A stretch of DNA of 64,000 nucleotides from Thermodesulfobacteriota bacterium (GTDB taxonomy: Bacteria > Desulfobacterota_D > UBA1144 > Nemesobacterales > Mycalebacteriaceae). Made by a program: the position numbers and the translations under genes. The notes under the pieces are model-generated. The model ran no database searches. It was not told where the DNA came from and worked only from the letters and a program-made list of their open reading frames with translations. This document shows positions 36,901 to 56,065 of the stretch, one piece after another (within the stretch, counting starts at the first letter, position 1; every line of letters starts with the position of its first letter). Where the stretch lies: contig OZ245366.1 of NCBI GenBank assembly GCA_965226585.1, positions 320,001-384,000 of the forward strand, read 5' to 3'.

Positions 36901-37394
36901 TATGCATCGCGGGCGTTGTGCGCTCCTTTTCAACGAAGGTTACAAAGTCCGGAAAAGGGCAGTTCGGCAGGATAGTTCTTGAAGACCTGAAGGGCTCGGT
37001 TGAGTGCGTAATCTTCAACGACGCCATAACCAGAAACCGCCTCCTGCTTGAGCAAAAAATACACCCGGTTGTGCTCATCGGCACGGTTGACGGCGGGGAA
37101 GACAAAAAGAGCCTCAAAGTGAAAGAGGCTCTGTCTGTTCACGACCTTATGGCGAAAAAGCACCGCGTTACAATCTCAATAGATGGCGAAGCCGCAGACG
37201 GCGATACCCTCATCAAACTGGAAAACATTATGAAACAGCACGGAGGCGGGTCCAAAGTTGATCTCAACCTCAAGGTTGACGGCAAAACCGTTTCCATAAA
37301 CGTGGGGAAATACGGGGTTGCCGCCACAGACGGTTTTGTCAGCGAGGTTAAAGGGCTTTTGGGAGACAGGTCTCTTTCACTTGATGTTTTGTAG
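33942..37394 (+). CDS. dnaE: DNA polymerase III alpha subunit
   Basis: FVHLHVHSQYSLLDG PHP domain, GPGRGSAAGS, FERFLNP.RVSMPDIDIDF, KFDFLGL, YSFNKSHSAAY, C-terminal OB fold. Confidence 0.98.
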   Translation: MKNNFVHLHVHSQYSLLDGAIKFDELVDRVKELDMGAVAVTDHGNLCGAREFYNEAAKKGVKPIIGCEIYITPTLKLDNPGDGKNFHLTVLCMNETGYTNLSNLVTRGYFEGFYRRPRVDREMLAEHNEGLIVLSGCMSSELSRAIFKSTPETPENIISTYKEIFGDRYYLEVQATGTPEQNRINKSLKKLGEKFDIPLVATNDCHFLRRSDHGFHDVLLCIQTGSKLEDRNRMRFPGDGFYLKSREEMEKSLKGYSDALDRTVQIAERCDFEFKGEGYRFPKFPLENGLDADGFLHKLALGKMKERLAVRGITGEEIEKYTERLDYELGEICKMGFADYFLVVADLVQNAKTNGIPVGPGRGSAAGSLAAYALGITDVDPIVHKLIFERFLNPGRVSMPDIDIDFCTEGRDRVIDYVSEKYGRENVAQIGTFGKMSSKAVVRDVGRVLGVPYSEVDKISKLIPSYRGKVRKIEQALKESPELRKKVEESDDMTRVVELAKPLEDMVRHASTHAAGVLIASEKISDRVPLYKGSKDETVTQFDMDAIQELGYVKFDFLGLRNLTVIRKTIDLIEEKSNGSAPDLDIDRMPLDDEGAYKLFVNGKPHGLFQVEASSGMASMLRRLKPEKFEDIVAALALYRPGPIDSGMVEDFIKRKNGKARVSYPHPLLEEILSETHGLFVYQEQIMRTASVCANYTLSDADLMRRAMGKKNTAEMKAQREKFVSGALENGIEKGKAAELFDIMEKFAGYSFNKSHSAAYALITYQTAFLKAHHAAEFMSSLMTVDSANNDKVISHIAECRKMEIKVLPPDVNESMAEFTPVDSGTIRFGLSALKSVNDDVVADIIAAREEGAFTDLFDFCSRVKSKRLTKKVFEMLIRSGAFDSFESNRAKLFGSLETVVSFYMLKQSAADNGQGSLFNSLESEAVIPPLPEVEPWSEQEMLESELESLGLFVSKHPMERCAEQLKIVSSCVDSSGFEELKDRKEVCIAGVVRSFSTKVTKSGKGQFGRIVLEDLKGSVECVIFNDAITRNRLLLEQKIHPVVLIGTVDGGEDKKSLKVKEALSVHDLMAKKHRVTISIDGEAADGDTLIKLENIMKQHGGGSKVDLNLKVDGKTVSINVGKYGVAATDGFVSEVKGLLGDRSLSLDVL

Positions 37395-39776: not shown

Positions 39777-40966
39777 CAGGCTTTTTCAATCAGGCACATC
39801 GCCTTTGCCGCCACCCCTTCGCCCCTGCCGGTGAAGCCCATTTTCTCCGTGGTTGTGGCTTTTATGTTCACCGCGTCCGTTCCCAGTATGGCTGAGATTT
39901 TTTCCCGCATCTCTCCGGTGTGCGGAGACAGGCGGGGTTTTTCGCAGACAATCACGCAGTCCACATTCACGGCTTGAAAACCGGCGCGTGATATGATGGC
40001 GCGAGTCTGTTCCAGCAGATGCGCCCCTGTCGCGTTTTTGTACGCGGGGTCTGAGTCCGGAAAATGCTTGCCTATATCTCCAAGCCCCGCCGCTCCCAGA
40101 AGAGAGTCGCATATCGCGTGGGCAAGGGCATCTGCGTCTGAATGTCCTATAAGCCCTTTCTCAAACGGAATCTCCACACAGCCGAGAAACAGTTTTCTGT
40201 TCTTCCCAAACCTGTGGGCGTCAAATCCTGTTCCAACTCTGAAGCTCTTCATTCCGCCCCGCTCGAGCCCCCTGATGATTGCTTCGGCTGTTATCAAGTC
40301 TTCGCCGGTGGTGATTTTCATGTTCCGTTTTTCCCCTCCGGCGATAAGCACCTCTTTTCCGCGCCCTTCAAAAAGAGACGCTTCATCGGTTATCTCTTCG
40401 GGGTTTCCCGAAAAGTTTTCATAGATTTCCCCAAGCAGTTCTTTGCGGAACGCCTGAGGCGTTTGCGCCCGCCACACTCCGGAGCGCGGTATGCATTTGT
40501 GAAAGTACCGCTCTGCGCCGTTTTTTTCGTCCCCCCGGGTTTTCTTTATCGTGTCGTCAAGGGCAACTCCCGCAGAAGCCGCGCCGGAATCGTTCGCTCC
40601 CGAGATAACCGCCAGTATGGAGTGAGTGCTCACAAACGGTCTTGCCGCATCGTGAAAAACAACCACACCGCCGCCTGCGTTTTCAAATCCCAGCCGCGCG
40701 GATTCAAAGCGCGTTTTTCCACCGGTGATAACCTTTGTTTTTCCGCCTCCAAATTTTTCCGCTACTTCCTGTGCCTGTCCGATATGCTCTGCGGGGGCGG
40801 TGATTATGATTTCGCCTATGCCTTCGCAGTCTCTGAAAGTTTCAAGGCTGTGGGCAAGGAGCGGTTTTCCGCACAGATTCAGAAACTGCTTCGGCTCTCC
40901 CCCGACCCGTTTTCCCTCTCCCGCCGCGAGAATGATGGCGGAAACAATAGACCTGTTTTCTAACAT
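39776..40966 (-). CDS. ispDF: bifunctional IspD/IspF
   Basis: IILAAGEGKR...PKQF, HDAARPF, QTPQAF, KITT.ED (IspD); GFDAHRF, GHSDAD, DIGKHFPD, NIKATTTEKMG (IspF). Confidence 0.96.
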   Translation of the reverse strand: MLENRSIVSAIILAAGEGKRVGGEPKQFLNLCGKPLLAHSLETFRDCEGIGEIIITAPAEHIGQAQEVAEKFGGGKTKVITGGKTRFESARLGFENAGGGVVVFHDAARPFVSTHSILAVISGANDSGAASAGVALDDTIKKTRGDEKNGAERYFHKCIPRSGVWRAQTPQAFRKELLGEIYENFSGNPEEITDEASLFEGRGKEVLIAGGEKRNMKITTGEDLITAEAIIRGLERGGMKSFRVGTGFDAHRFGKNRKLFLGCVEIPFEKGLIGHSDADALAHAICDSLLGAAGLGDIGKHFPDSDPAYKNATGAHLLEQTRAIISRAGFQAVNVDCVIVCEKPRLSPHTGEMREKISAILGTDAVNIKATTTEKMGFTGRGEGVAAKAMCLIEKA

Positions 40967-40993
40967 TTGAAAATGCTATATCTGTGGGCGTTT

Positions 40994-43900
40994 TCATTCA
41001 AGTGGGTCACCCAAATCAAGCCTCAATCCCAAATAACGGACATCAAGTTTGTCCGCCTTGAACTGGTCAAAGGGATTTTCCAGTAGCGATATTCCGGTTT
41101 CATTTCCCCCCGCATTGAAAACCGTGCAAATCTGGTACTCGCCTAACTCCATTTGATTTTGACATCTACGGGCGTGTTCCCACTGTGGACCTGTAATTTC
41201 GAAGGTGTGAGGGGGGCTACTTATTGTTGTCTTGACCTCTACGAAGATATCCAAATTGCCTTTTCTGCTGATGCTTATGTCATAGGGCTTACTGCTTTCC
41301 CCTGCTTCATTCATCCAGACTACCTCATCTTCCAGATATTTCTTTTGTAGTGCGAGAAGAACTTCTTCTTCTCCCCATCTTCCGGCTTCCAGATTTGGCT
41401 TTGTAGGTCTGCTGTTATTACTATCCTCTCTTGTGGAATTGTTCTGACGAGGGGAAGAGGTTCTTGGCGACAGTGTAGGCGTTACGGCGCGGTATATTTT
41501 CGATGAACCATTCGGCTCGCGTTCGGGTTTCCATGGTTCTTCTGCAAAATTGTTGGGTTCCCCCGGTGTTCTGACCCCGCTTCTTTCATAGTTGCTTGAG
41601 CGCGGTTGTTTTAGTTGTTTCAGTTCTGCTTTCAATTCTTCATTCTCTTGCTTTAACTGTGTGTTTTCCTCCGCTTTTTCTTGGTACTCTTTGCGAGTAA
41701 CAACTTCCGGTCTCATTCCCAGAGCGCGAGCTAATGTGTCTCGGGCTATTGGGGTTCCTTTCTCATACATTTCGTTCAAATCTTCAAATCCGTAATTTCC
41801 CAGAGATTCTATTTGTATCAGTTCGTTTTTTTTATCGTAGAGCCAGTTGTGTTTTTGTATAGTCTGTCCGGCTTCTGAGAACATCTCACACGTATTTTTG
41901 TTGGAAAAATTCTTTTGAGAACTACAAGATACTTTTCCCCTTAAATGGTCATAATATTTCAAGAGGAAACTCCACAAAATCTTTGAACGGCCCTCATTGA
42001 TATTTTCGAGAGAGTATTGAAGCCCGTAGATTTTGAAGTTAGGCTTAAAACCGTCTTCGCCTTTTTTATGGGGATTATCGGGAGTTCCGTGACGTACTGT
42101 TTTCTTCCACTCTTCGCCATCCCATTCCCACTTTCCATCGTCATATTCCAAATCTTTAAAGCATCCGATTTTTACAAACATTTCTTTTATTTCTTTATTG
42201 TTTTTCTCTGTCCATTTCAACTCTTTGACAGGTTCTATCTCTTTATTGTCTTTGAACCATTTTGTAGTTATCTCATCCTGCAGGAAAGTTTTGTCCGGTT
42301 TGCTATAGATTCCTGTTTCCGTGCGAATAATATAGAGGTTTTTTAATGACTTTGTGATGTCACTATCATTTTTGTAGCCTGCTATACGAGCAATGTTTTT
42401 GAGGTGATATTCTTCATTTATTTGGTGGTTTTCGTTTTCGTATTTGGGCAGTATGTCTTTTTGTATCCAGTCTTTTTCATCAGGTTCTTTGATTCCTAGG
42501 TATTCAAACAGTTTTTTGGCGTTTTCTTGCTTCAAAATTTCTTTGTCAATTATTTTGAAGGATGAGGACTCACTGTTGGATTCGTACGGTCTGAAAACCT
42601 GTAGGTTTCCTTTAGAATCAAACGGAGACACGTAGTCTCCATTCTGTAGGCGTAAGATAGGTTTTTCTTTGAACAAGTCAATTATTTCACGATACCTCCC
42701 GTAAAATTTAGGTTTTAATTCACTTTCTTTTTCTTCTATAAAAATACCGTAAAAGTTATTTAGCCACTTATCATCTTTTTTACTGATGAATTCTTTATCT
42801 AATTTCTCTGCAAACTTTTCTAACGAGAATTCTTCTATTGAGAGGATTTGGCGAATGTTATCTGGAATGTCCGTGGAGACCCATTTATACATGACATCTT
42901 TTATTTCGTGTGGTTTAAGAAGTTTGGTTAGTTCCTTGTCTTTAGTAAACAAACATTCTTTCGGGTGAAGATATGTGTTTACTTCAACACCCGGAAGCAG
43001 TTTTTCTTGTTTCATTTTCTCTGTCACGGCCTCGCGTACGGTAGAGTATGGTTCTTCTCCATTTCTTTCGTTCACGGGCAGAAATCTTAAGACATCGGTT
43101 GATAGCAAACCTATATCTCTTATCAATGGCAGAGAATCGGCAACGAGTCTTCCCAAGCTCTTTGTAATTTCTTGGTTGTCTTCGTCATCAAGGCAGAGAT
43201 TCTCTCTGCTGGGAGTTGTTCCGTAGGGTGCTTGAACAAGAAAAGGGAGATAACTTTCCGTGCTTGTCGGAAAAAAAACAAATACTGGGCTCTCGGCAAC
43301 GCTAACCAGATTTCTTTTTTCTTTGAGTAAAGCGATTTTAATTTTATGGCTGGTTTTCCTGACTGATTTTATTGGCTCTATTACAAGATAGTGTTGGTCA
43401 CCACCATCTCCGACAGTTGTTTCAGTAACTTTGAAATCTTTTTTGTATTTCTGCGGAATTTTTAGTGATTTTCTCTTTATGTGTAGATTCCATTTCTTGT
43501 CCTTATAGGAGAAAGTTATTCTTTGTATGTTTTTGAGGAAAAGGAGATTTTCACTTTTTGTTTCTTCAAATCCTTTGATTATAGTTTGTTTGATGTTCTG
43601 AGATTCATCGTTTTTGAGGCGAAGAATAAAAAGTGTTTCTTTTCCAATGTCTTTGGGTTTAACTTCTTCTGGAAGTATATAGTCCTCAATTTTGAAGTGG
43701 TATTTCCCCGAATGAATAATCGGAGAATCTGTAATGTTAAAAACTGACTTGAAGCCAACCCCGAACTTTCCTATGTCGTTTTTTCCTTCTTTATCTGAGT
43801 CACCAAAGTTAGTTATTGAATCAACATTGTTATAAGTAAAAACTTTTTTGCCATCGTGTCTTATCAGCAATTCTTTGTCTGACAAATCAAAGTGTACGAA

Positions 43901-44077
43901 CTTTGCTTCCTTATCTTCGGCATTTTGAAGAAATTCAAAAATGAACTGTGTTTTCTTAGAATGTTGTTCCGCAAGGAGTTTATGCGAGCGGTCTTTGCGT
44001 TTTTTCATCAGCTTGTGGTATTCGAGTATTTCCTCGCGAAGTTTGGCCAATCCGGGGTTGATATCTGCTTTATCCAT
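40994..44077 (-). CDS. sacsin/NOV-like GHKL ATPase fused to C-terminal DUF3883 PD-(D/E)XK nuclease; AT-rich, putative defence protein
   Basis: FIFEFLQNAED, HDG..FT..NV.SI...G.S.K, IGKFGVGFKSVF (GHKL/sacsin); GRWGEE.V...W.NE.GES.KPYDI...FVEVKTT...FEIT..QW (DUF3883); RBS GAGGAG before ATG 44077. Confidence 0.85.
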   Translation of the reverse strand: MDKADINPGLAKLREEILEYHKLMKKRKDRSHKLLAEQHSKKTQFIFEFLQNAEDKEAKFVHFDLSDKELLIRHDGKKVFTYNNVDSITNFGDSDKEGKNDIGKFGVGFKSVFNITDSPIIHSGKYHFKIEDYILPEEVKPKDIGKETLFILRLKNDESQNIKQTIIKGFEETKSENLLFLKNIQRITFSYKDKKWNLHIKRKSLKIPQKYKKDFKVTETTVGDGGDQHYLVIEPIKSVRKTSHKIKIALLKEKRNLVSVAESPVFVFFPTSTESYLPFLVQAPYGTTPSRENLCLDDEDNQEITKSLGRLVADSLPLIRDIGLLSTDVLRFLPVNERNGEEPYSTVREAVTEKMKQEKLLPGVEVNTYLHPKECLFTKDKELTKLLKPHEIKDVMYKWVSTDIPDNIRQILSIEEFSLEKFAEKLDKEFISKKDDKWLNNFYGIFIEEKESELKPKFYGRYREIIDLFKEKPILRLQNGDYVSPFDSKGNLQVFRPYESNSESSSFKIIDKEILKQENAKKLFEYLGIKEPDEKDWIQKDILPKYENENHQINEEYHLKNIARIAGYKNDSDITKSLKNLYIIRTETGIYSKPDKTFLQDEITTKWFKDNKEIEPVKELKWTEKNNKEIKEMFVKIGCFKDLEYDDGKWEWDGEEWKKTVRHGTPDNPHKKGEDGFKPNFKIYGLQYSLENINEGRSKILWSFLLKYYDHLRGKVSCSSQKNFSNKNTCEMFSEAGQTIQKHNWLYDKKNELIQIESLGNYGFEDLNEMYEKGTPIARDTLARALGMRPEVVTRKEYQEKAEENTQLKQENEELKAELKQLKQPRSSNYERSGVRTPGEPNNFAEEPWKPEREPNGSSKIYRAVTPTLSPRTSSPRQNNSTREDSNNSRPTKPNLEAGRWGEEEVLLALQKKYLEDEVVWMNEAGESSKPYDISISRKGNLDIFVEVKTTISSPPHTFEITGPQWEHARRCQNQMELGEYQICTVFNAGGNETGISLLENPFDQFKADKLDVRYLGLRLDLGDPLE

Positions 44078-44197
44078 ATCAGTTTCTCTCCTCATGAGCA
44101 GTGTGTAATCTGCACAGAGCCAAGACTTTATCCAAAAAGAGCCTTGAAACCAAAGGCGCGAATACTCATAATAGCCCTGTCTACGGAGACTCTATTA

Positions 44198-44941: not shown

Positions 44942-46230
44942 TTTCACGATACAGCAGAAAGGAAATGGCGGACATCTGGAGCGACAAATCCAGATACTCC
45001 AAATGGCTTGAAGTGGAACTCGCCGTCTGCAGGGCTTGGAGCGAGGCGGGAAAAATTCCCCCGAAAGCCCTTGCGGATATAGAAAAAAAAGCCGCCTTTG
45101 ATACCGCGAGAATAGCGAAACTGGAAAAGAGTTTGAAGCACGACGTGCTCGCGTTTCTCACTTCCGTTTCAGAAAAAGTGGGCGCGAACTCAAGATACAT
45201 TCACATGGGCATCACCTCGTCAGATGTTCTGGACACCGCGTTCGCCCTCCAGCTTGGGCAAGCCGCGCAACTCATAATGAAAGATATGAAAGACGTGATG
45301 AAGGTTTTGAAAAAACACGCTCTCCGGCACAAAAAAACCCCGATGATAGGAAGGTCTCACGGCATTCACGCCGAGCCCAAAACCCTCGGGCTTGTTTTCG
45401 CCCTATGGTATGACGAGATGTCTCGAAACCTTGCCAGAATGAAGCGCGCCGCCCATGAGGCGGGGGTGGGCATGATGTCGGGACCTGTTGGAACCTACGC
45501 GAGCGTGCCGCCCCGGATTGAGAAAAGTGCCTGCAAAAAACTGGGTCTTCGTCCCGCCGCGATATCAACCCAGATAATTCACCGCGACATACACGCCGAG
45601 TATTTTCTCTGCCTCTCGCTCATCGCCGCCGGAATTGAGAGAATAGCGACCGAGATACGGCACTTTCAAAGAACCGAGGTTCTTGAAATGGAGGAGCCGT
45701 TCGGAAGCGGGCAGAAAGGGTCTTCGGCGATGCCCCACAAAAAAAATCCGATATTGTCGGAAAATCTCTGCGGCCTCGCAAGGGTTGTGAGGTCTCACTC
45801 TGCGGCCGCGCTTGAAAACATCTCCCTGTGGCACGAGAGAGACATAAGCCACTCGTCGGTTGAAAGGATTATCGCCCCGGACGGCACCACTCTTGTTGAT
45901 TTTATGCTCGTCCGCCTCAAACTTCTTCTGGATGGTCTTGTGATACACAAGGACAAACTTTCGGAAAACATGGACCTGACAAAAGGGCTTGTGTTTTCCC
46001 AGAAAGTTTTGCTGAAGATTATAGACAAGGGCGTCTCCCGTGAGAATGCGTACGCGATTGTGCAGAGAAACGCCATGAAATGCTGGGAGGAGAAGACCGA
46101 CTTTTCAGCCATCCTTAAAACGGACGGGGAGTTGATGAAGATTCTCCCGGAGGACGAAATTGACTCATGTTTTGATACTTCAGAGGATTTTCAGCATGTT
46201 GAGACGATTTTTAAGAGAGTTTTCTCCTGA
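44938..46230 (+). CDS. purB: adenylosuccinate lyase
   Basis: MISRYSR.EM, KHDVLAF, H.G.TSSD, GRSHGIHAEP, GSSAMPHKKNP, WHERDISHSS. Confidence 0.97.
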   Translation: MISRYSRKEMADIWSDKSRYSKWLEVELAVCRAWSEAGKIPPKALADIEKKAAFDTARIAKLEKSLKHDVLAFLTSVSEKVGANSRYIHMGITSSDVLDTAFALQLGQAAQLIMKDMKDVMKVLKKHALRHKKTPMIGRSHGIHAEPKTLGLVFALWYDEMSRNLARMKRAAHEAGVGMMSGPVGTYASVPPRIEKSACKKLGLRPAAISTQIIHRDIHAEYFLCLSLIAAGIERIATEIRHFQRTEVLEMEEPFGSGQKGSSAMPHKKNPILSENLCGLARVVRSHSAAALENISLWHERDISHSSVERIIAPDGTTLVDFMLVRLKLLLDGLVIHKDKLSENMDLTKGLVFSQKVLLKIIDKGVSRENAYAIVQRNAMKCWEEKTDFSAILKTDGELMKILPEDEIDSCFDTSEDFQHVETIFKRVFS

Positions 46231-47230
46231 CCTTCCGGTTGTTGCCTCTCTCTGTTTTTTGCTGATTTTCTGCGCCGCGCAGAACTCCGCCGCAAGGAGT
46301 TTTGAGCAAAAAACCCGCGCGGCGGCGGAGACATTCGCAAAAAGTTTTGTGCTTTTTCTCCCCGCCGGATACACGGTTGGCGTTGAGAAATCCGGCGCGA
46401 AAAGACAGAGAGGGTTTATAAGCGGAAGGTTTGTTTTCAAATCCCCCAAAGGGAAAAAGGCGGACGTTCCGCCCGTTGCGTTTCTTCTGACTTCAGACGG
46501 AAAGTATTTGATTCTGGGAACAGACAAAGTGGTTGGCACGGCTGACCTTGAAGGCTCAGACCTTTCCGGATTCGCCAAAATCCCAAATTTCTTCAAAGAG
46601 GCGCCGGTGGTTCTTTTCTCAAAAGACGGGCGGATAATCGCCGCGAACAACATTCTTGAAGTCGGCGCGGATTACGCCCTGAAGAACAGGCGGAAAATGT
46701 CATTCAAAAACTCCCCGGTGCTGGGAGACCCGCGCGCCGAGGTGTCAATTGTTGAGTATTCGAACTTTCAATGCCCCTACTGCAAGGAGGCGCTTTTTTT
46801 AATCAGGGATGTTCTGGATAAGTATGAGGGCAAGGTGAGGCTTGTGTACAAACACCTTCCGGCAAGTTTTCATGAGTGGTCGTACCCCGCAGCCGCCGCT
46901 TCGTACTGTTTTGCCAGATTCGGGGGCAACAAGGCGTTCAGGTATTTTCACGATGAGGTTTTCAGGCATCAGGCATCCATAACTCCGCAAAACTACGCCA
47001 AACGCTTTGCCGCCCTCGCGCGCCGGTCGGGGCTTTCGCCGGGGCGCATATCAAAATGCATGGATTCATCCGAAGCAAAGGATATTATCAGTCGCGACAT
47101 AAAAGAGGCGGAATCGCTGGAAGTGGAAGGAACTCCAACGTTTTTTGTTGACGGAATCAGGGTTCCCGTGGACGCGGATTTGCTCAAGCGGGCAATTGAG
47201 ATACGTCTTTCCCGCAGGGGTTTACAATGA
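46196..47230 (+). CDS. DsbA/DsbG-like thioredoxin-fold protein with N-terminal extension (start uncertain)
   Basis: P.LG...A.V.IVEYSNFQCPYC and GTPTFFVDG cis-Pro loop; N-terminal hydrophobic signal. Confidence 0.85.
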   Translation: MLRRFLREFSPDLPVVASLCFLLIFCAAQNSAARSFEQKTRAAAETFAKSFVLFLPAGYTVGVEKSGAKRQRGFISGRFVFKSPKGKKADVPPVAFLLTSDGKYLILGTDKVVGTADLEGSDLSGFAKIPNFFKEAPVVLFSKDGRIIAANNILEVGADYALKNRRKMSFKNSPVLGDPRAEVSIVEYSNFQCPYCKEALFLIRDVLDKYEGKVRLVYKHLPASFHEWSYPAAAASYCFARFGGNKAFRYFHDEVFRHQASITPQNYAKRFAALARRSGLSPGRISKCMDSSEAKDIISRDIKEAESLEVEGTPTFFVDGIRVPVDADLLKRAIEIRLSRRGLQ

Positions 47231-47240
47231 AAGGGGCGAT

Positions 47241-48452
47241 ATGGATTTTATAGAACAGGCGGGAAAAGCGGTAAGGCGGAAAGCCCCGGAATTGCGGGAC
47301 TGGGAGGCGGAGCATCTGTCGAAAATACTGGCGCCTTTTTATTCCTCCGCCGACCTCAGGGTTTCAGAGAAAAAGTGCGCCGTTGTTGACACAAACATCT
47401 TTCCCGCCGGTTTCAACAACCTTTCCGCGCCATTCCGTTCAGCCCTAGGTTCTCTCATAAAAGACGCTCTTGAGCGGAAATATCCCGGCACGGAAAGTGT
47501 TCTTATAGTTCCCGAAGTTCACACGCGAAACCCGTATTACTGGGAGAATATTAAGACGCTTGAAAAGGTTCTGCTGAGCCGCGGTTTTGAGGCGCGGGTT
47601 GGTTTTATTGACGACTCGGTTGAGCGCGAAAAAATCTCATGTGAGACATCGGGCGGCGAGACGGTGGAGCTTGCCAAAATACGTTCCGAGGGCGGAAAGA
47701 TAACAGCCGGGGGTTTTACCGCGGACGCGGTTTTGCTGAACAACGATTTTTCCGATGACTGCCCGTCAATTCTGCGTGACGTTGTTCAGCCGATTGTGCC
47801 TCCGGTTGAAATCGGGTGGCATTCCCGCAGAAAAGATGTTCATTTTGAGTTTTACAACTCCCTTGCGTCCGAAGCCGCGCTGATATGCGGAATTGACCCC
47901 GCCTCGGTTCAGGTTCTCACCCGTCCGGTGGAGGATGTGGATTTTGACGAAGCGGATGACAGGGAGAGGGTTGCCCTTGCCGCAGACGGCATGACCGGGG
48001 AGATGAAAAACGGTTCCGAGCCGTTTGTTTTTGTCAAAAGCAACAACGGCACTTACGGGATGGCGGTGGTTTCGGTTGCGGACGGCGATGCGGTGAGAAA
48101 CATGAACGCCGAGAACAGAAAGAAGATGCGCGCCGGAAAATCAAAACAGCCTTTGAGAAACGTGGTTGTTCAGGAAGGCGTTCCGACCGCTTTGCGGACA
48201 ACGGACGGAATGCCCACCGAACCCGTTCTCTACATGGTGGAAACGCAAGTTGCGGGCGCGTTTTACCGGGCAAACTCCAGGAAAGACGCGCAGCAGAATC
48301 TGAACTCATCGGGAATGGAGTTCCGACCGTTTCCCGATGCGGTGAGCGGTTTTCAGGAGATACCGGAACTGTTTTCCCTATGCGCCAAAATCGCCGTCAT
48401 CGCCGCCGGATACGAGATTGAAAAGGTCATGCTGGAAGGGGGCTGTGAGTGA
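47241..48452 (+). CDS. gshA: glutamate--cysteine ligase (ATP-grasp-like GshA family)
   Basis: PFYSSADLR...VDTNIFPAGFNNL, LIVPE.HTRN.YY, LLNND.S, GW..RRK..HF, VK..NGTYGM.V, QEGV.T, EPVLY, FYR.N....NLNS.GM. Confidence 0.88.
   Translation: MDFIEQAGKAVRRKAPELRDWEAEHLSKILAPFYSSADLRVSEKKCAVVDTNIFPAGFNNLSAPFRSALGSLIKDALERKYPGTESVLIVPEVHTRNPYYWENIKTLEKVLLSRGFEARVGFIDDSVEREKISCETSGGETVELAKIRSEGGKITAGGFTADAVLLNNDFSDDCPSILRDVVQPIVPPVEIGWHSRRKDVHFEFYNSLASEAALICGIDPASVQVLTRPVEDVDFDEADDRERVALAADGMTGEMKNGSEPFVFVKSNNGTYGMAVVSVADGDAVRNMNAENRKKMRAGKSKQPLRNVVVQEGVPTALRTTDGMPTEPVLYMVETQVAGAFYRANSRKDAQQNLNSSGMEFRPFPDAVSGFQEIPELFSLCAKIAVIAAGYEIEKVMLEGGCE
48443..48450 (+). repeat. left copy of 8-bp direct repeat CTGTGAGT (island boundary)
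   Basis: ctgtgagt(g)agtc here versus ctgtgagt-agtc at 51360-51371; covers the last codons of gshA. Confidence 0.7.
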
Positions 48453-48496
48453 GTCGGAAATTTTGTTTGTGCGGATTTGGTTGATACCATTAAGAA

Positions 48497-49291
48497 ATGG
48501 CAAAGAATCTGAACCCTTGGATAGAGATGAGTATTGAATACGCGAACCAGCGTAGTTACTTGGATGATTTGTTCACCGTTTATCCGACAATACCGGATGG
48601 TATTCGTGAAATAGATGAGGAAGTTCGGGAAAGTGTGGAAAAATCGTTTGAAAAGCAGGACAACATTTCGCTTATTGAAAACTTGCTCAAACTTGAACTT
48701 TTTCCGGTCAAGGACTCGTATGTAGCGTACCTCAGGAGAGACAAAGAATCCTTGAGACGCAATCCTGCCACCGTAGACAGGCTTGCCGGTCGCATTTATG
48801 ATTTGGGGCTGGAGGAAGTTTTGTCTCGCTCTTCCGAGCCGAAAGAAACCAACAGGCAAATAGGCCCGCTTTTCAAACGCTGGATTAGTGGAAAGTCTCT
48901 CGGTGTGAAGCCAGTGAAGTTGGATAAGTTTTTGGAAACAAAAAGAAACGCTGTTCTTGATGCAAGTGATGAAGAGATGAAAGAATTTGCTTGGAAAAAT
49001 CTGAATTACAAGCATGACAAAGGGCTCGATTTTGTCGGGCGTTTTAACGGCAAATACGTTATTGGAGAAGCAAAATTCCTAACTGATTTTGGAGGACATC
49101 AGAACGCTCAATTCAATGATGCTGTAGCTACTGTAACAGCGCGTGGAGTGAAAGCAGTTCAGGTCGCAATTCTTGACGGTGTCCTATACATTGAAAGCAG
49201 AAGTAAATTGCATAAGGAAATTACCGGACGGCTTAGAAACAAAAATATAATGAGTGCATTGGTTTTTCGGGAGTTTCTGTATCAGGTCTAA
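48497..49291 (+). CDS. type II restriction endonuclease, Tsp45I-like
   Basis: W.E.SIEYANQRSYLDDLF.VYP, P.KDSYVAYL, PKETNRQIGP.F, and KGLDF...IGEAKFLTDFGGHQNAQF PD-(D/E)XK core recalled as Tsp45I family; coupled to a methyltransferase. Confidence 0.78.
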   Translation: MAKNLNPWIEMSIEYANQRSYLDDLFTVYPTIPDGIREIDEEVRESVEKSFEKQDNISLIENLLKLELFPVKDSYVAYLRRDKESLRRNPATVDRLAGRIYDLGLEEVLSRSSEPKETNRQIGPLFKRWISGKSLGVKPVKLDKFLETKRNAVLDASDEEMKEFAWKNLNYKHDKGLDFVGRFNGKYVIGEAKFLTDFGGHQNAQFNDAVATVTARGVKAVQVAILDGVLYIESRSKLHKEITGRLRNKNIMSALVFREFLYQV

Positions 49292-50421
49292 TGCCAATGT
49301 TCATTACTTATGAAAACAAGAAGTCTGAGAAAGATATTCTCGACAAAACTTCTGGCGTAGGTCTGGATGTTGTTTCCGGGCAAGGGGCGGCAAACAAGCT
49401 TATTCACGCAGACAACCTTCCAACTCTTAAAACTCTACTTGCCGATTATGCTGGGAAAATTGATTTGATTTACATTGACCCCCCATTTGCCACGAACGGA
49501 CATTTCAAAATCAGCAAAGACAGGGCGAATACGGTCAGCTGTTGCAATGGTGATGAAGTGGCGTACAGCGATACCCTTTTAGGAGTGGATTTTCTGGAAT
49601 TTTTGCGTGAAAGGCTGGTACTGTTGCGCGAACTCTTATCCGAACACGGGTCAATTTATCTGCACATTGACTACAAGATAGGGCATTACGTCAAGTTGAT
49701 AATGGATGAGATATTTGGAATCGGTACGTTCCGGAACGATATTACCAGAGTTAAGTGTAATCCGAAGAATTTTAACCGTAAAGCGTATGGAAACATTAAG
49801 GATTTGATACTTTTTTATTCAAAATCTCCTACTCCGAAATGGAATGACCCGCGTATTCCTTTTTCAAAAGAGGATGAGGAACGCTTGTTCAAAAAAACAG
49901 ATGATAACGGGCGGAAATATACGACAATACCGCTTCACGCGCCTGGAGAAACTTCAAGCGGTAAGACGAGCGAGGAGTGGAAAGGTATGAAGCCGCCTAG
50001 GGGAAGGCATTGGCGTACCGACCCGGCGATACTTGAGAAATGGGACAATCAGGGATTGGTTGAGTGGTCGGTAAACGGAGTTCCACGTAAGAAAATCTTT
50101 CTTGATGAGAGGAGAGGTAAGAAAATGCAAGACATTTGGGAATTCAAGGACCCGCAGTATCCGCAGTACCCAACGGAGAAAAGTTTGAATCTTTTGAAAT
50201 TTATTATTGAAGCGTCATCAAACGAAGGAGATTTGGTACTGGATTGTTTTGCGGGTTCGGGAACGACTCTTGTCGCAGCACAATCTCTGAACCGTCATTG
50301 GATAGGAATTGACGAGTCTGAATCGGCGATTAAAGTTATCAAAGAGAGAATAAACGATTTGCCTGCCACTCTTTTTTCACTTGTTGAATATGAGTTTTTG
50401 AGAACAGTACAAATGCCATAG
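49291..50421 (+). CDS. site-specific DNA methyltransferase (N6/N4 amino-MTase, beta-class order)
   Basis: IDLIYIDPPF (motif IV) precedes YPTEK and VLDCFAGSGTT (motif I); TAATG overlap with the endonuclease gene. Confidence 0.92.
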   Translation: MPMFITYENKKSEKDILDKTSGVGLDVVSGQGAANKLIHADNLPTLKTLLADYAGKIDLIYIDPPFATNGHFKISKDRANTVSCCNGDEVAYSDTLLGVDFLEFLRERLVLLRELLSEHGSIYLHIDYKIGHYVKLIMDEIFGIGTFRNDITRVKCNPKNFNRKAYGNIKDLILFYSKSPTPKWNDPRIPFSKEDEERLFKKTDDNGRKYTTIPLHAPGETSSGKTSEEWKGMKPPRGRHWRTDPAILEKWDNQGLVEWSVNGVPRKKIFLDERRGKKMQDIWEFKDPQYPQYPTEKSLNLLKFIIEASSNEGDLVLDCFAGSGTTLVAAQSLNRHWIGIDESESAIKVIKERINDLPATLFSLVEYEFLRTVQMP

Positions 50422-50446
50422 TATTCGACCTGATGACCAAGAAAAA

Positions 50447-50475
50447 TTGACACTTTTCAGGCAGTTAGGTATAGA
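50447..50475 (+). promoter_or_regulatory. sigma70-type promoter for the Panacea operon (TTGACA-17-TATAGA)
   Basis: Perfect TTGACA at 50447-50452, TATAGA at 50470-50475. Confidence 0.55.
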
Positions 50476-50526
50476 ATGTGAGGTAGCGATTGAACTTATT
50501 GTAAGTATGAAAATAGGGGGGTTGCA

Positions 50527-51057
50527 ATGCCGAAATCAACAAAAAAGCTAACCGAACTTCTCTTGTATGTTGCGTCTAAATCTGAAGGAGACGGGAGTTT
50601 TGGAATGACTAAACTCAACAAATTGATGTTTTTTTCAGATTTTTCTCACTACAAAAAGACTGGAAGATCTATTACAGACACCACTTATGTAAGAAACCAT
50701 CGGGGACCCACCATTAAGGATTTACATTTGGTATTGAATGAAATGGAGAGTAATCGTGTTTCTGCGATTAAAGAGACAGATTTTCACGGCTATCCACAGA
50801 AGCGTCTAATTGCACTGAGACGCGCTGACATATCACAGTTTACGGTTGATGAGATAGACACGGTAGGGAGTGTTCTATCACTTCTGAAGGGTCATAATGC
50901 GTCAGAAGTTAGTGAAGCATCCCACGAATTCGTAGGGTGGAGATTTGCCCGTCAGGGTGAGGAAATCCCTTACATGACTATTAATATATGTAGTCCTGAA
51001 CAGGTTGCTGAATCAATGTCAGATGAAGAGTTAAGGCAAGCAAGTGAGTACGACTGA
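50527..51057 (+). CDS. Panacea-domain (DUF4065/SocA-like) antitoxin
   Basis: LLLYV...G.TKLNKLMFFSDF..Y..TG.SIT...Y.R..RGP, then S..SH...W..A..GE.IPY. Confidence 0.85.
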   Translation: MPKSTKKLTELLLYVASKSEGDGSFGMTKLNKLMFFSDFSHYKKTGRSITDTTYVRNHRGPTIKDLHLVLNEMESNRVSAIKETDFHGYPQKRLIALRRADISQFTVDEIDTVGSVLSLLKGHNASEVSEASHEFVGWRFARQGEEIPYMTINICSPEQVAESMSDEELRQASEYD

Positions 51058-51346
51058 TAACCTTTTCAATATAATTGAAACAGGCGAATATAAGAAAAGT
51101 ATCCGGTGCCTGAAAAGAAAGGATCTCTTTGACTCCAAGGGTCTCAAGTTCGCAAGGGATGCTGTCCGGTGGGCGTTGGAGCGCAGTCCGGAGGATTACC
51201 TTGTAGTTAATCCTAAGGCATCCATCCGTTTTATAAGAGTTTGGAACCAAAGAGGAACCACCTCGCTAGGGGTTTTTTACAAAGTTTGTGAGGGAGATGT
51301 GTGCTTACGTGGTGCGTGTGCTACTAAGAAGGAGTGGTTAATGTAG
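51044..51346 (+). CDS. putative toxin, RelE/ParE-like small basic protein
   Basis: 100 aa; GTG start overlaps the Panacea stop by 14 nt; I.ET.EY.KSI..L N-terminus, L...P, IR.IRV and VFYKV....V.L resemble RelE/ParE topology. Confidence 0.5.
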   Translation: MSTTDNLFNIIETGEYKKSIRCLKRKDLFDSKGLKFARDAVRWALERSPEDYLVVNPKASIRFIRVWNQRGTTSLGVFYKVCEGDVCLRGACATKKEWLM

Positions 51347-51359
51347 TCGATGATTTTGC

Positions 51360-51367
51360 CTGTGAGT
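51360..51367 (+). repeat. right copy of 8-bp direct repeat CTGTGAGT (island boundary)
   Basis: c-tgt-gag-tag-tca: in-register copy of the gshA terminal codons followed directly by the ClC stop. Confidence 0.7.
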
Positions 51368-51369
51368 AG

Positions 51370-53070
51370 TCACCCCTCTGCCACCGCGTTATTATACGCT
51401 TCAATCACATCCCTTCGCGACAAAATCCCCACTATTTTTCTTGACCCCTTGGACTCCACAACCGGAAGTATTTCCGCGGGCTTCTGCCCCAGCACTTTTA
51501 CCACATCGTAGAGATTGTCATCGGGGCAGGCGGTTGTTACGTCAAGAGTCGCGAACTCCTTGACGAGCAGAAGGTCTTTCAAATCCTCCTGAAACAGCCA
51601 CTGGCGGAAATCCTGTATTGACACTATCCCCGATAAAAGCCCTTCCGAGTCTACAATCGGAAAGGTTGTGAACCTGCTCTGCGGAATGTCTTCAATCAGT
51701 TTTCTCAACTTGGTGTTCTCGTCAACCGTCTCAATACTCGTTCTCATCACATCTTTCACGCTCAGGGAATGCAGGTTTTCGTTCTCTATCCCGCTTATCT
51801 CAACCCCCTCTTTTTTCAACTCAAGCATGTCCATTGAGCCGCCCGTAAGAGCGCGGGCAAGCGACCAGCTTACAACCGTGCACGCCATCACCGGAACTAT
51901 CACCTGATAACTCTGTGTCAACTCAATTATCAAAAATATGGAAGTCAGAGGGGCGTGCGTGATGGCGGCAAGAAACGCCCCCATGCCCAGAGTTGCGCAA
52001 ACGGACGATATGTTTGGCGGAGCGGAAAAAATACTTGACGCCGCCTTCGCAAAAGCCCCGCCCGCGGCGGCTCCCATGAATATGGCGGGCGCGAACAAAC
52101 CTCCGGGCCACCCGCTGCCGACCGTAACGCAAGTCGCAACCGGCTTCAAAAGAGCCACCGCCGCAAGCCCAAGCAGCGGAGCGTTTCCCTTCAGTATATC
52201 CCTCACGTGCTCGTAGCCGTTTCCAAGAATGTCGGGCGAAGCAAAAGACAGCCCGCCCAGAAGAGCCGCCCCGATGAACAGGCGAATCTTCCTGTCGCCT
52301 ATCTTTGAAAACAGGTCTTCAGTTACGGAAAATATCTTCATAAAACCCGCCGCATTGAAACCGATAACAACCCCCAGCGGCAGGTAGAAAATCATAAGGT
52401 CGCGCATGTTAAACGCTTCGTTCTGAAAACTCGGCATCTCAAAAAGCGGAGTGCTGCCGCCCAGAAAATATGACAGAGCGGTTGCGGTCGCAGATGATAT
52501 GACTATCGGAATAAAAGTTGCCGACCTCAGGTTTCTCAAGAGCACTATCTCTTCAGAAAAAAGCACTCCCGTAATCGGCGCGTTGAAGGTTGCCGCGATT
52601 GCCGCCGCCGTTCCGCACGCTATGAAAGTGCGGATGCCGGTTTTGGACAGACGCACCCGCTCTCCAATCATACTGCCAATCGCCCCGCCCGTTTGGGCGA
52701 TGGGTCCCTCCTGCCCGGCGGAGCCGCCGAAACCCAATGCAACCACAGATCCCGCGGCGCGTGAGATTGCCTCGCGCCCCCTGATAACTCCGCTTCCGAG
52801 GTTTATCCTCTCAACAAATCTCGGAAACCCGAAACCCAGCAGGTCTTTCGGGGAAAACGGCAGTTTTGAAATGACGGCAAGCAAAGCCGCGCCGGCAAAA
52901 AGAGGGATGAAAATTTTTGCCCCGGCTCCCGTAAACGGAGAAACGGCAAAGTGGTAGAGACTTTCATACGAGGTGACAAACAGATGGTTCACCCCGCCCG
53001 CCGCAAGCCCTATCACAAGAGCCCCGGCGATGAGAACGGTCTGCTCGGACAGCAGGCGGTTTTTTTTCAT
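51370..53070 (-). CDS. ClC chloride channel/antiporter with two C-terminal CBS domains
   Basis: GGSAGQEGP, AA.IAATFNAPITG.LFSEE, PGGLFAP, HAPLTS..LI.ELT, CBS pair. Confidence 0.93.
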   Translation of the reverse strand: MKKNRLLSEQTVLIAGALVIGLAAGGVNHLFVTSYESLYHFAVSPFTGAGAKIFIPLFAGAALLAVISKLPFSPKDLLGFGFPRFVERINLGSGVIRGREAISRAAGSVVALGFGGSAGQEGPIAQTGGAIGSMIGERVRLSKTGIRTFIACGTAAAIAATFNAPITGVLFSEEIVLLRNLRSATFIPIVISSATATALSYFLGGSTPLFEMPSFQNEAFNMRDLMIFYLPLGVVIGFNAAGFMKIFSVTEDLFSKIGDRKIRLFIGAALLGGLSFASPDILGNGYEHVRDILKGNAPLLGLAAVALLKPVATCVTVGSGWPGGLFAPAIFMGAAAGGAFAKAASSIFSAPPNISSVCATLGMGAFLAAITHAPLTSIFLIIELTQSYQVIVPVMACTVVSWSLARALTGGSMDMLELKKEGVEISGIENENLHSLSVKDVMRTSIETVDENTKLRKLIEDIPQSRFTTFPIVDSEGLLSGIVSIQDFRQWLFQEDLKDLLLVKEFATLDVTTACPDDNLYDVVKVLGQKPAEILPVVESKGSRKIVGILSRRDVIEAYNNAVAEG

Positions 53071-53158
53071 TCAGCCTCCCCCCGGCATTGACAGCAAAGC
53101 ATCTTGATATGTAGAGTTTGTGCCAAACTTTTCCGCTCGCGCGCTGAAGATAATTCTC

Positions 53159-54454
53159 ATGATACAAGAAACCCTTCCCGGTGTGCCGCAACTGTCAGAA
53201 AGCGGTTTTCTGCTGATTTTATCCCTTGTGCTGCTTGTATCCAAGTTTTTCGCCGAAGTGGCGGAACGCTTCCGGCAGTCGTCCGTTCTGGGCGAACTTG
53301 TGGCGGGTGTTGTTCTGGGCGGCGGAATTCTGGCGGTTATGCCTTCCGGACCGGCGGATTCCGGCTACCACACCTTCTATCTGATTTCCGAACTCGCGGT
53401 TGTTGTTCTTCTGTTTGAAATAGGGCTTGAAACCAAACTCAAAGATATTCTGAAAGTCGGTCCCGTCTCGCTTCTTGTCGCCCTTGTCGGGATTGTCGCG
53501 CCTTTTGCTCTGGGCTTTATTTCGATCTACGCGCTTTCCTCATACAGCATAATGGAGATGCACCTGCTCGAACCGACCGGGCTGTTTCTTGTTGCCGTAA
53601 CCACGGGAGCCACCCTCACGGCAACAAGCGTGGGAATAACGGCGAGGGTGCTTTCAGACATAAAACAGCTGGGCGCGCCCGAGTCAAAGATAATCATCGG
53701 CGCGGCGGTTATAGATGATGTGGTGGGGCTTATAATCCTCAGCCTTGTAAGCGGGCTGATACAGTCGCACGGAGCGGGTGTTGAGAGCGGAATATCAGTT
53801 GCCCAGGTGGCGCTGATTTCGGCAAAGGCGTTTGGTTTTCTTTTCATCGCCGTGGTTGTGGGCAACCTTGTTGTTGAAAAGGTTTTCTCTTTCATAGGAA
53901 ATCTCAAAAGCCGGGGCGCGCTTGTGGTTGCCGCCCTGTCAGTCGCATTTCTCTACGCGTACGCGGGAAAGTATTTTGCGGATGTTGCCCCGATAGTGGG
54001 AGCGTTTGCCGCGGGTCTTGTTATCAGAAAAGCGCCGCAGTTTGAATCCATAGAGCACAGCATCAGAACGGTGTCGGATTTTCTTGTGCCTGTTTTCTTT
54101 GTCGCGGTAGGGGCGCAGGTTGACGTGAGGGTTCTCAATCCGTTCGGAGACGGAAACTCTCAAGTGCTTGCCGTGGCGGTGGGGCTTTTTGTTGTGGCGT
54201 TTATAGGCAAGTACGTAAGCGCGATTGCCGCCTTCGGGTCGGGCATAAGGAGAAACATCGTGGGCATCGGTATGGTTCCGCGCGGCGAGGTGGGATTGAT
54301 TTTTGCGCAGATAGGCTACAATAACGGCAACGGGGTTTTTGACTCAATGTTCTTTTCGGCTATTGTGCTGACCGTTATGCTTACGACCTTCGTGGTACCG
54401 CCCCTTCTGCAGAGAGGCTTTGGAAAAGCGGAGGCGGATGCGGGTTCCGCATGA
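53159..54454 (+). CDS. cation:proton antiporter (CPA2, NapA/KefB-like; start uncertain)
   Basis: VLGELVAG, LLFEIGLE, ATSVGITARVL, GAAVIDDV.GL, GMVPRGEVGLIFA. Confidence 0.92.
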   Translation: MIQETLPGVPQLSESGFLLILSLVLLVSKFFAEVAERFRQSSVLGELVAGVVLGGGILAVMPSGPADSGYHTFYLISELAVVVLLFEIGLETKLKDILKVGPVSLLVALVGIVAPFALGFISIYALSSYSIMEMHLLEPTGLFLVAVTTGATLTATSVGITARVLSDIKQLGAPESKIIIGAAVIDDVVGLIILSLVSGLIQSHGAGVESGISVAQVALISAKAFGFLFIAVVVGNLVVEKVFSFIGNLKSRGALVVAALSVAFLYAYAGKYFADVAPIVGAFAAGLVIRKAPQFESIEHSIRTVSDFLVPVFFVAVGAQVDVRVLNPFGDGNSQVLAVAVGLFVVAFIGKYVSAIAAFGSGIRRNIVGIGMVPRGEVGLIFAQIGYNNGNGVFDSMFFSAIVLTVMLTTFVVPPLLQRGFGKAEADAGSA

Positions 54455-54490
54455 CGATTTTTTTGACGTTCTGTGTTTAGAGAAAAAAAG

Positions 54491-54997
54491 ATGAGACTGT
54501 TTCGGGCATCAGCGTATATTTTCCTCACATTCACAGCCGCCGCGCAAAGCGCGTTTGCGGCGGGCGATTTGATAACCGCAGACAAAACCGTGTTTGTGCA
54601 GTTCGCCATTTTTCTGGTCGCCCTGTATCTGCTGAACATCCTGTTCTTCAGACCGCTTATCTATCTTGCGGATAAAAGGGAGAGCGCGACTTCCGGCTCC
54701 GGCAGAGAGGCGGAGGAGTTGACGGCAAAATCCGAAGAATTAACGGCGCGCTACAACGCGGAGGTTAAAGAGGCGAGAGAGCGGGCGGCTGAGGAAAGGA
54801 CGCTCATCACAAAGGCGGCTATTGAAGAGGCGGACGGCATAGTTTCATCGGCGAGAGAGGAAGCGCGCGCGCTTCTGGACGAGCGCACGGCGGAGCTTTC
54901 CGCAGAGGTTGAAAAGACAAAATCAGAGATGAGTTCCGAAATAGAGGAAATTGCGGTGATGATAACCCGCGCGGCGGGAGGCGGCAAAGATGCTTGA
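54491..54997 (+). CDS. F0 ATP synthase subunit b'
   Basis: TVFVQFAIFLV.LYLLN.LFFRP TM followed by a long helical stalk; first of two b-type genes. Confidence 0.82.
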   Translation: MRLFRASAYIFLTFTAAAQSAFAAGDLITADKTVFVQFAIFLVALYLLNILFFRPLIYLADKRESATSGSGREAEELTAKSEELTARYNAEVKEARERAAEERTLITKAAIEEADGIVSSAREEARALLDERTAELSAEVEKTKSEMSSEIEEIAVMITRAAGGGKDA

Positions 54998-55538
54998 CGC
55001 GGGATTTCTCGCGGCGGCGGGTGAAGCCGCCGGAACGGCGCCGTATTTCAACTGGACATACGTTGGCAAGCACGCGTTCAACCTTGCCGTTCTTATAGGA
55101 ATTCTCTACTATGTTCTCAGGAAACCGGTTTCAGGTTTTCTAAAATCCCGCAGAAAAGAGATGGTGGAAAAGTTTGAGGAATCAGGCAGAAAACTGAACG
55201 AGGCGAAAAAGATATTTGAGCAGTGCTCTGAGAAACTTGACGGCGTTAAAGCCGAGACGGATTCTCTGAAATCCACCATCGCCGCGCAGGCGCAAAACGA
55301 AAGGGAGAACATCATCCGCCGCGCCCGCGCCGAAAAAGAGGCGATACTGAAAGAGACGGCTGAAAGCATTGAGTCCGCCGCCGCGAGGGCGCGCGCTTCG
55401 ATAAGGCGGGAGGCGGTTGCCGCCGCCATGAGCATAGCGGAACGGAAACTGAAAGAGTCCGGGGGCGGAAGCCCGGTTGACATCAAATCTTTTGAGTCTG
55501 CGGTTGAGGAGGGCAAATGGCTTCGGTCGCGAAACTGA
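54990..55538 (+). CDS. atpF: F0 ATP synthase subunit b
   Basis: FNLAVLIGILYYVLRKPV..FL..R TM plus coiled coil. Confidence 0.85.
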   Translation: MLDAGFLAAAGEAAGTAPYFNWTYVGKHAFNLAVLIGILYYVLRKPVSGFLKSRRKEMVEKFEESGRKLNEAKKIFEQCSEKLDGVKAETDSLKSTIAAQAQNERENIIRRARAEKEAILKETAESIESAAARARASIRREAVAAAMSIAERKLKESGGGSPVDIKSFESAVEEGKWLRSRN

Positions 55539-56065
55539 AAGATATGGTTGACGCTCTTGTCTTGTGTTGCGCGGAGTCCGGAGAGTTCTCCGTTGACGAT
55601 TGCGCTGAGGGGCTTGAGAGTTTTTTCTCAAAAGTGGAAGAGGGCGGGCTTTTGAAAAAAGCGCTTGAAAGCCCGGTTGTTGCGGCGGGAGAGAAGGCGG
55701 AAATTTTGCGCGATTTGTGCTCGGCGGCGGAGTTTCCTCCGCTTCTTGCCAACTTCCTTGTTACGGCGGCGGAGTTTGACAAACTGAGAGCCCTGCTTAA
55801 CCGTCGCAGAACGGTTCTGGAATGGATACGCTCTGCGGGAGGAACGGTGAGAGCCACCGTTACGGTTGCTTCCCCGGTCAGCCAGGAGGATGAGCGGCGG
55901 GTGAGGGAAGCGGTGTCGCGGCTTGCGGGCGGCGGGAAATGCGAGGTTGAGTTCGTTCAGGATTCGGAGATAATAGGCGGGATGATTGTGAGGATTGGCA
56001 ACAGCGTTTACGATGACAGCGTTAAAACCCATCTGGACGGAATGCGTTACGAGCTTTCAAAATAG
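55517..56065 (+). CDS. atpH: F1 subunit delta
   Basis: L.SPVV...EK, ATVTVASP, D.EIIGGMIVRIG..VYD.SVK; position between atpF and atpA. Confidence 0.87.
   Translation: MASVAKLKDMVDALVLCCAESGEFSVDDCAEGLESFFSKVEEGGLLKKALESPVVAAGEKAEILRDLCSAAEFPPLLANFLVTAAEFDKLRALLNRRRTVLEWIRSAGGTVRATVTVASPVSQEDERRVREAVSRLAGGGKCEVEFVQDSEIIGGMIVRIGNSVYDDSVKTHLDGMRYELSK

Follow-up and report, generated by a model that had tools for sequence, protein, structure and literature searches.

We analyze a 64,000-nt stretch (hereafter the window) of contig OZ245366.1, positions 320,001 to 384,000, from a sponge-associated Thermodesulfobacteriota bacterium (assembly GCA_965226585.1, genome G000; 1.48 Mb, 51.6% GC, 94.6% complete), and in particular a cassette of defence-type genes that lies between gshA, encoding glutamate-cysteine ligase, and the convergent clc gene, encoding a CLC channel (Table 1, window coordinates). 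An original prediction, made from the letters of the window, described this interval as a low-GC island of four genes and no recombinase, framed by a short repeat, and proposed that it had entered as a unit by target duplication. The description is borne out. The 8-mer CTGTGAGT is present at both ends, at 48443-48450 and at 51360-51367, the second copy two bases before the clc stop, and the 2917 bases between the copies have a GC content of 42.4% vs. 51.6% for the genome. The interval contains four open reading frames (ORFs), namely a restriction endonuclease (REase), a methyltransferase (MTase), a Panacea-domain antitoxin (PanA) and a 100-aa ORF, and Pfam and PADLOC scans detect no recombinase among them.

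The gshA ORF opens at a TTG at 47145; the ATG at 47241 agrees with relatives, and the stop codon is the TGA at 48450-48452. The REase has a D...EAK motif around E191 and no match under E 0.4 to PDB sequences, and it is predicted to cut GTSAC, the Tsp45I site (PMC5807929; this and all other articles are cited from excerpts). The start of the MTase overlaps the REase stop by 1 nt, and its motif order has DPPF at 63 ahead of FAGSG at about 320. Judging from the families concerned, the MTase would mark host GTSAC sites and the REase would cut unmarked phage or plasmid DNA, PanA (five homologues, 41–70% identity) would bind its toxin, and both the restriction-modification (RM) and the toxin-antitoxin (TA) pair would penalise loss. 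A promoter-like element stands directly after a breakpoint at 50443 that is described below; it was not picked up by a consensus promoter and terminator scan of the locus, whose signals were no better than those of shuffled sequence.

Table 1. Features of the gshA-clc locus in window coordinates. X1, X2, X5 and X6 are sequencing runs with conspecific strains; G001 and G003 are congeners.
Feature	Position	Strand	Evidence or remark
gshA, glutamate-cysteine ligase, left anchor	47241..48452	+	PF08886 E 1e-108; TIGR02049 above cut-off
Left repeat copy, last gshA codons	48443..48450	+	X1 allele left breakpoint at 48450
REase leader	48453..48496	+	homologous to G003 leader; X2 allele departs at 48483
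Tsp45I-family type II REase, 264 aa, intact	48497..49291	+	PF06300 E 3e-118, 394 bits; PADLOC REase_II
Beta-class amino MTase (N6/N4), 376 aa	49291..50421	+	PF01555; PADLOC MTase_II E 2e-169
Internal breakpoint between RM and TA modules	50443..50444	.	X6 and X5 contigs
Putative promoter-like element heading the TA module	50447..50477	+	TTGACA, 17 nt, TATAGA; read from sequence
Panacea-domain (PanA) antitoxin, 176 aa	50527..51057	+	PF13274 E 7e-15, above cut-off
Putative cognate toxin, 100 aa	51044..51346	+	overlaps PanA by 14 nt
13-nt spacer	51347..51359	+	weakly homologous to the entire G001 toxin-clc spacer; 7/13 identical at offset 0, next best 5
10 nt without counterpart in G001 (right 8-mer copy + AG), likely scar	51360..51369	+	
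Only GTSAC site between 48450 and 51375, over the clc stop	51369..51373	.	
clc, CLC channel with CBS domains, right anchor, convergent	51370..53070	-	PF00654, PF00571; stop 51370-51372

The content of the gshA-clc slot varies within the species, as is clear from six sequencing runs of three studies (X1–X6; assembled contigs only, rare variants dropped) whose conspecific strains are 97.7–99.2% identical in the flanking pieces. Contigs depart from the window into other sequence at 48450, 48483, 50443, 51370 and 51389. The X4 contigs carry the entire stretch without any difference, and X4 is probably the source sample of the studied sequence. In X1, a sponge metagenome from another study, the main strain (about 99% identical, depth 45–50) diverges from the window at 48450 and rejoins it at 51370, with no fewer than 1475 + 2473 non-matching bases, so that this allele is other cargo and not an empty site; five small contigs of the same run, at a depth of 2–3, bear the window's RM genes with 0–1 differences. 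The X1 cargo opens with GGTGAG after the gshA stop and closes with CTCACC before the clc stop, 6-bp inverted ends that may be due to chance since both gene ends share similar stop contexts, and no target duplication is seen at its ends. The X2 contig leaves at 48483, the X6 contig follows 48413-50443 and then departs, and a minor X5 contig (depth 3.3 vs. 21–26) has 1237 other bases in place of 50444-51388. The RM and TA genes thus part at 50443, which means that they are separate modules, with the right-hand repeat belonging to the TA module, and which is at odds with the idea of four genes moving as one unit. In X3 there is a loose end at 51389 with a different clc C-terminus (the last few codons), so cargo swaps can rewrite the C-terminus of an anchor gene. 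The right ends of X1 and X3 are without the repeat core, and none of three loose-end 30-mers from other alleles occurs in any of five genomes when up to 3 mismatches are allowed. None of the six runs shows a joint across the island, that is the empty site that had been predicted, which on contigs alone is no proof of absence; no circle (backward) joint is listed in their assembled contigs, and runs X7 and X8 have no words of the locus.

The same slot can be followed through the genus. Defence-type cargo occupies it in all five congeners (G001–G005), always at lower GC than the flanks, and gshA and clc flank it in G000 and in four of the five. The G001 slot, about 0.86 kb, joins a decayed REase directly to a decayed copy of the 100-aa toxin gene; G002 has a split NYN gene; in G003 the start of the REase is fused to the end of the MTase and followed by a PDC-S39-like gene; and the 8.4-kb slot of G004 holds two type IIG/ISP RM genes and a SIR2 gene. 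Behind the gshA of G005 there is a REase remnant with an intact MTase, and clc is translocated about 43 kb away, with a type I RM system and a DUF4411/ImmA pair behind it. Thus, at least three other conspecific alleles and all five congeners differ from the window in slot cargo, and the original prediction was right to expect horizontally acquired defence genes here and different cargo at the gshA 3' end in other genomes. Remnants of the Tsp45I-family RM system itself are found at this site in three of the five (G001, G003 and G005), and PF06300, which occurs in 5 of 61 genomes, sits at the gshA slot in the same three and G000 and elsewhere only in G006. None of the five congeners has the 8-bp repeat at the slot or, on comparison of the junctions, an empty slot; no words longer than 6 nt are common to both slot ends in G001–G004; and the scanned cargo ORFs of G000 and G002–G005 include no integrase or transposase matches. 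The gshA termini differ from species to species. As side observations, G006 belongs to another family and has its Tsp45I-family RM genes at an unrelated site (L047/L054), where the MTase is intact but a frameshift divides the REase, and the gshA of G002 (L032:3459-4684) is broken by frameshifts and stops, either by decay or by assembly error.

Among the 41 genomes searched more widely, gshA is present in 39 and the clc query matched in 18 at E 1e-40. Eight genomes outside the genus have close clc matches: gshA and clc abut in four of them, all at order level (gaps of 15, −4, −4 and 3 nt), and clc is located away from gshA in the other four. A tight junction is therefore plausible as the ancestral state, which agrees with the nearly gap-free gshA-clc joint foreseen at the outset. 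A metagenome scan with GshA yielded 23 loci, none conspecific, one of which (L094) is a congener at the same place as G003.

The age of the cassette can be approached from the avoidance of its presumed recognition site and from the phylogeny of its MTase. GTSAC occurs 487 times in G000 vs. 1733 expected (ratio 0.28), and the ratio is 0.36–0.51 in all five congeners (96–106 kb samples); the control GTWAC is not avoided (0.98–1.19), and small pools from other families give 0.66–1.19 for GTSAC with little power. Site avoidance increases with residence time and may outlast the system (PMC4687349). In a quick tree of 77 proteins, which takes in 76 of the 80 MTase loci but neither the G003 fragment nor loci that are partial or interrupted, the MTases of G000 and G005 are sisters (SH-aLRT 86), and the sequences among which they are nested come mostly from groundwater Patescibacteria. 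Given genus-wide GTSAC avoidance and the sister relationship of these two MTases, the cassette is likely old at the slot. The left junction, too, would be ancestral, judging from its homology to G003 in one blastn high-scoring segment pair (75% over 380 nt) that runs through the gshA end, the leader and the start of the REase. Most likely the four genes already occupied the slot when the species diverged and were not brought in along with the repeat; a first entry by target duplication is not supported, given the repeat-free remnants in three of five congeners and a left junction continuous with that of G003. Of the 80 MTase loci, 72 also have the REase, none the toxin and two a weak PanA; the single one that adjoins gshA is that of G005.

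By itself the 8-bp repeat is weak, and its more-than-chance status is borderline. With 5000 random zone pairs, an exact match of at least 8 was reached by 0.6% when the zones were narrow (20 × 26 nt) and by 7.9% when they were wide (74 × 54 nt). Among 27 tight-edged low-GC islands of G000, with edges taken from crude ORF calls, only the gshA-clc island has an edge repeat of at least 7; shuffled island edge pairs show a match of at least 8 in 1.1% of cases, or 0.29 islands expected among 27. Target duplication is thus not the general look of G000 islands. A longer degenerate end repeat (15/20; 48452-48471 against 51345-51364) was rejected as not significant, its score of 10 being reached by 165 of 3000 random pairs. 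Counting the 8-mer also revealed two families of dispersed repeats of at least 35 nt, one at G000:C1 27751, 777109 and 1210788 that may be multicopy RNA genes and one at 32041, 32113, 1251216 and 1251363 of the same contig that may be a short-period repeat.

The right junction was compared with G001 by aligning the toxin ends. G000 then has 10 extra bases, 51360-51369, ahead of the clc stop; they match base for base the end of gshA in the X1 allele, where the stop codon is TAG, and the repeat starts exactly where homology with the G001 spacer stops and fills the 10-nt length difference. The right-hand repeat copy is probably a scar, and to this extent the original prediction holds. Our preferred reading, which we hold with moderate confidence, is that the slot varies in content, its defence cargo likely being swapped by host recombination using the flanking genes and the repeat likely being a microhomology scar and not a target of an integrase. 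That the repeat is a real scar by any route seems fairly probable, and a chance origin clearly less so, though it deserves to be taken seriously.

In the history that we envisage, a Tsp45I-type RM system from the groundwater or Candidate Phyla Radiation (CPR) gene pool would have entered the 3' flank of gshA once, in an ancestor of the genus, the PanA-toxin pair would have joined it, and individual lineages would then have lost, eroded or replaced the cassette. A fragment with a gshA end, RM and TA may later have re-entered the species of G000, probably by competence uptake. On its left side this fragment would have undergone homologous recombination in gshA, and on its right side a few matching bases would have been joined into the last codons of the resident gshA (with the TAG end) adjoining clc, so that the insert would be followed by the terminus of the resident gshA as if a target had been duplicated. 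A true copy must be young, because the end of gshA is not the same in different species and neutral positions have reached saturation. G000 has recA, dprA and comEC, and the deletion that fuses REase and MTase in G003 coincides with an 8-bp match of REase 48672 to MTase 50204, so microhomology joints do form in this lineage. The scheme corresponds to homology-facilitated illegitimate recombination, which can integrate kilobases and was reportedly described in natural transformation by de Vries and Wackernagel in 2002. As in that process, a RecA anchor on one side would be combined with microhomology on the other, for which segments of 3–10 bp are given (PMC6382021); unlike the demonstrated cases, its action in the G000 lineage is inferred from one junction.

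Several observations count against this picture and temper our confidence in it. The scar model needs a past empty allele, and none is seen in five congeners or six runs; the spacer alignment to G001 is identical at only 7 of 13 positions, and the X1 match adds only a stop-codon choice, about 1 in 3. Competence genes do not show competence. The single nucleotide polymorphism (SNP) density of X1 is 1.5% at 36001-41143, 1.2% at 46000-48450 and 0.8% at 51370-56000, with no rise towards the slot, albeit without a genome-wide baseline. The X5 bridge is anchored by 47 and 30 nt, its right side one nt short of the bridging rule, and the X3 piece may come from a related species. With respect to age, the support of 86 in the quick MTase tree is not starred, and raw MTase identity was discarded as proof of descent because 10 of 80 unrelated MTases reach 81–83% vs. 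80% for G005. With a fourfold-site identity of 0.44 between G000 and G005, the MTases are diverged to the same degree as gshA (0.42) and clc (0.46; purB 0.53), which agrees with long residence, yet such sites are near saturation and therefore exclude only recent transfer. CCWGG (0.19), CGWCG (0.20), GCWGC (0.23) and GGWCC (0.40) are avoided in G000 too, and most of them also in congeners, as traces of further type II RM systems; GTSAC avoidance, common to CCWGG, CGWCG and GGWCC, could be due to other enzymes.

In a first alternative the slot is of the same replacement type and the repeat a coincidence: the cassette would have been passed down at this site, or exchanged through a plain double crossover in gshA and clc, and the 10 bases would be an ordinary intergenic indel. 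This is possible though rather unlikely: it draws on the 0.29 matches expected among 27 islands, on the lack of the repeat in every other allele, on the cassette remnants at the same site in three congeners and on the missing empty site in the six runs, but chance must then supply three things, namely a start where G001 spacer homology ends, the 10-nt length fit and the X1 stop match. An RM-linked insertion of the Kobayashi type, in which a circle of gshA end, RM and TA enters by a single crossover at a short match, possibly aided by the REase, would leave the same end structure, the ancestral left junction included. It has a precedent in RM genes without mobility genes (PMC2853133), and the only GTSAC of the interval lies at the right junction. 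We nevertheless regard it as improbable, because the duplications in that screen exceed 30 bp (45–49 bp in rows of its Table 2) vs. 8–10 here (PMC2853133), the RM module occurs without the right repeat copy, an edge repeat is found in only 1 of 27 islands, and no empty target was found among the congeners and runs.

That the gshA 3' end serves as an attachment (att) site, with the cassette mobilised in trans or left as the remnant of an integrative element, was the mechanism first suggested, and we judge it slightly more doubtful still. In its favour, the repeat preserves the gshA product, the X1 cargo spans from gshA stop to clc stop between its inverted ends, and in X3 the clc gene receives a new 3' end, which is what integrative elements bring to their target genes. 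Against it, no other allele seen has a common core at its two ends, the alleles use five different breakpoints, the scanned cargo ORFs of G002–G005 contain no integrase-family match, and just 1 of 80 MTase loci adjoins gshA. The PF00589 search of G000 returns two tyrosine recombinases whose best matches are XerC and XerD, and the resolvase family PF00239 has no match in G000, no search having been aimed at transposase families. Homing driven by the RM system without a mobility gene seems very improbable. Here the cassette would cut the GTSAC of an unmethylated empty junction and be copied in by gshA-homology repair, refilling the slot after every loss; since TCAC is fixed by the clc stop, such a site needs only one base. 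We set this aside because, after a cut at the junction GTSAC, 9 of the 10 duplicated bases would lie on the wrong side and 486 other genomic GTSAC sites would be cut too.

The replacement slot with a likely scar thus remains our preferred reading, and it also agrees best with systems that are known. The gshA-clc slot resembles the core defence hotspots cDHS1/2 of Pseudomonas aeruginosa (PMC10250203) and replacement flexible genomic islands (PMC10872708) in its variable defence cargo between constant core genes and in having no single type of mobile element in the cargo scanned; many of the known sites (29% and 47%) are without a mobile gene, and spread by homologous recombination in the flanks has been proposed for such hotspots and islands (PMC10250203, PMC10872708). 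It differs in being tiny (0.9–8.4 kb vs. a cDHS1 median of 26 kb), in being bounded by two convergent protein-gene stops instead of tRNA or tmRNA genes, in its conservation across a genus of 1.2–1.6 Mb genomes and in that no raised border SNP density was seen in X1. With the RM insertions of PMC2853133 it has in common the R and M genes within less than 20 kb, the missing mobility gene and the repeat overlapping a gene 3' end; unlike them, its repeat is 8 bp exact (10 vs. the X1 allele) and not >30, no empty allele turned up in five congeners and six runs, and the genes most likely preceded the repeat at the site. The substitution class of the same article, in which RM systems of other types replace one another at one locus (116 of 760 locus pairs), fits the slot better than the insertion class. 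An integrative element would be expected to differ from the slot on two counts, since there is no cognate integrase in cis (in G000 only XerC/D-like genes) and independent insertions do not have the same core at both ends (G001–G004; X1 and X3 right ends). We therefore treat the slot as a new example of known replacement-type defence hotspots, with no new mechanism shown.

At the level of the modules, the REase matches the Tsp45I system (PF06300) over its full length, is coupled to a beta-class MTase and is accompanied by host avoidance of GTSAC, and the locus is unlike others with this MTase in having the PanA-toxin pair downstream; the Tsp45I-type specificity is here a prediction. The TA genes conform to PanAT type II systems, in which the Panacea gene comes first and a small partner second within 100 nt (PMC8832971; here a 14-nt overlap), and G001 has a toxin remnant together with the RM remnant. 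They depart from known PanAT members in that the partner has no family match and one full-length homologue, and its role as a toxin is putative.

This 100-aa ORF has no Pfam, PADLOC or NCBIfam match. A phmmer search gives one full-length homologue at 48% identity, the other three of four matches being set aside as partial and within long repetitive proteins, and both a word search and a genome scan return 0 matches. Its ESM Atlas features score 0.91–0.93, with RelE/ParE-named clusters included. The AlphaFold2 (AF2) model shows a helix and three strands at low confidence (pLDDT 53), Foldseek finds no match at E 0.001 to this low-confidence model, and hhalign against the partners of paralogous PanA genes gives 0.1%. 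A RelE/ParE-like identity is only a lead. G000 also has two further Panacea genes, L109 (G000:C1:1443474-1446977) and L110 (G000:C1:121998-125210), one of which has an internal stop and the other of which pairs with a 130-aa unannotated partner.

What looked like a micro-element thus becomes a defence slot as old as the genus, documented in a sponge-associated lineage that is uncultured. Within one species four or more alleles are in circulation, two of them within single samples, with RM and TA exchanged separately, and the slot is a useful natural case of defence-gene turnover in small genomes whose only integrases are XerC/D-like. Sponge symbionts show an enrichment of RM and TA genes (PMC8163846), and RM systems are commoner in competent bacteria, often inside small acquired regions (PMC4176335). 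By titles and the starts of abstracts, the literature matches on Dadabacteria, sponges and restriction-modification do not treat this locus, and gshA is mentioned by none of the top 10 of 213 literature matches. The slot also cautions against over-reading a short in-register repeat at the end of a gene, since such a repeat can be due to chance or be left behind by recombination as a scar, and it can be mined for new defence genes (the cargo of X1, X2 and X5, and the orphan PanA partner).

Elsewhere in the window, a neighbouring slot at 40994-44095 behaves like the gshA-clc slot. It holds an AT-rich 1033-aa sacsin/NOV_C gene on the minus strand, TmtA-like according to PADLOC; X2 skips 40936-44197 with 150 other bases, and the X1 allele is strongly diverged. 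Low-depth contigs of X4 and X5 match 43271-43288 and 46179-46196 (18 nt each) on opposite strands, either as an inverted 18-mer or as a repeat of another organism. Genome-wide, G000 has 34 low-GC segments of at least 2 kb, and all 55 low-GC segments together amount to 184 kb, or 12% of the genome.

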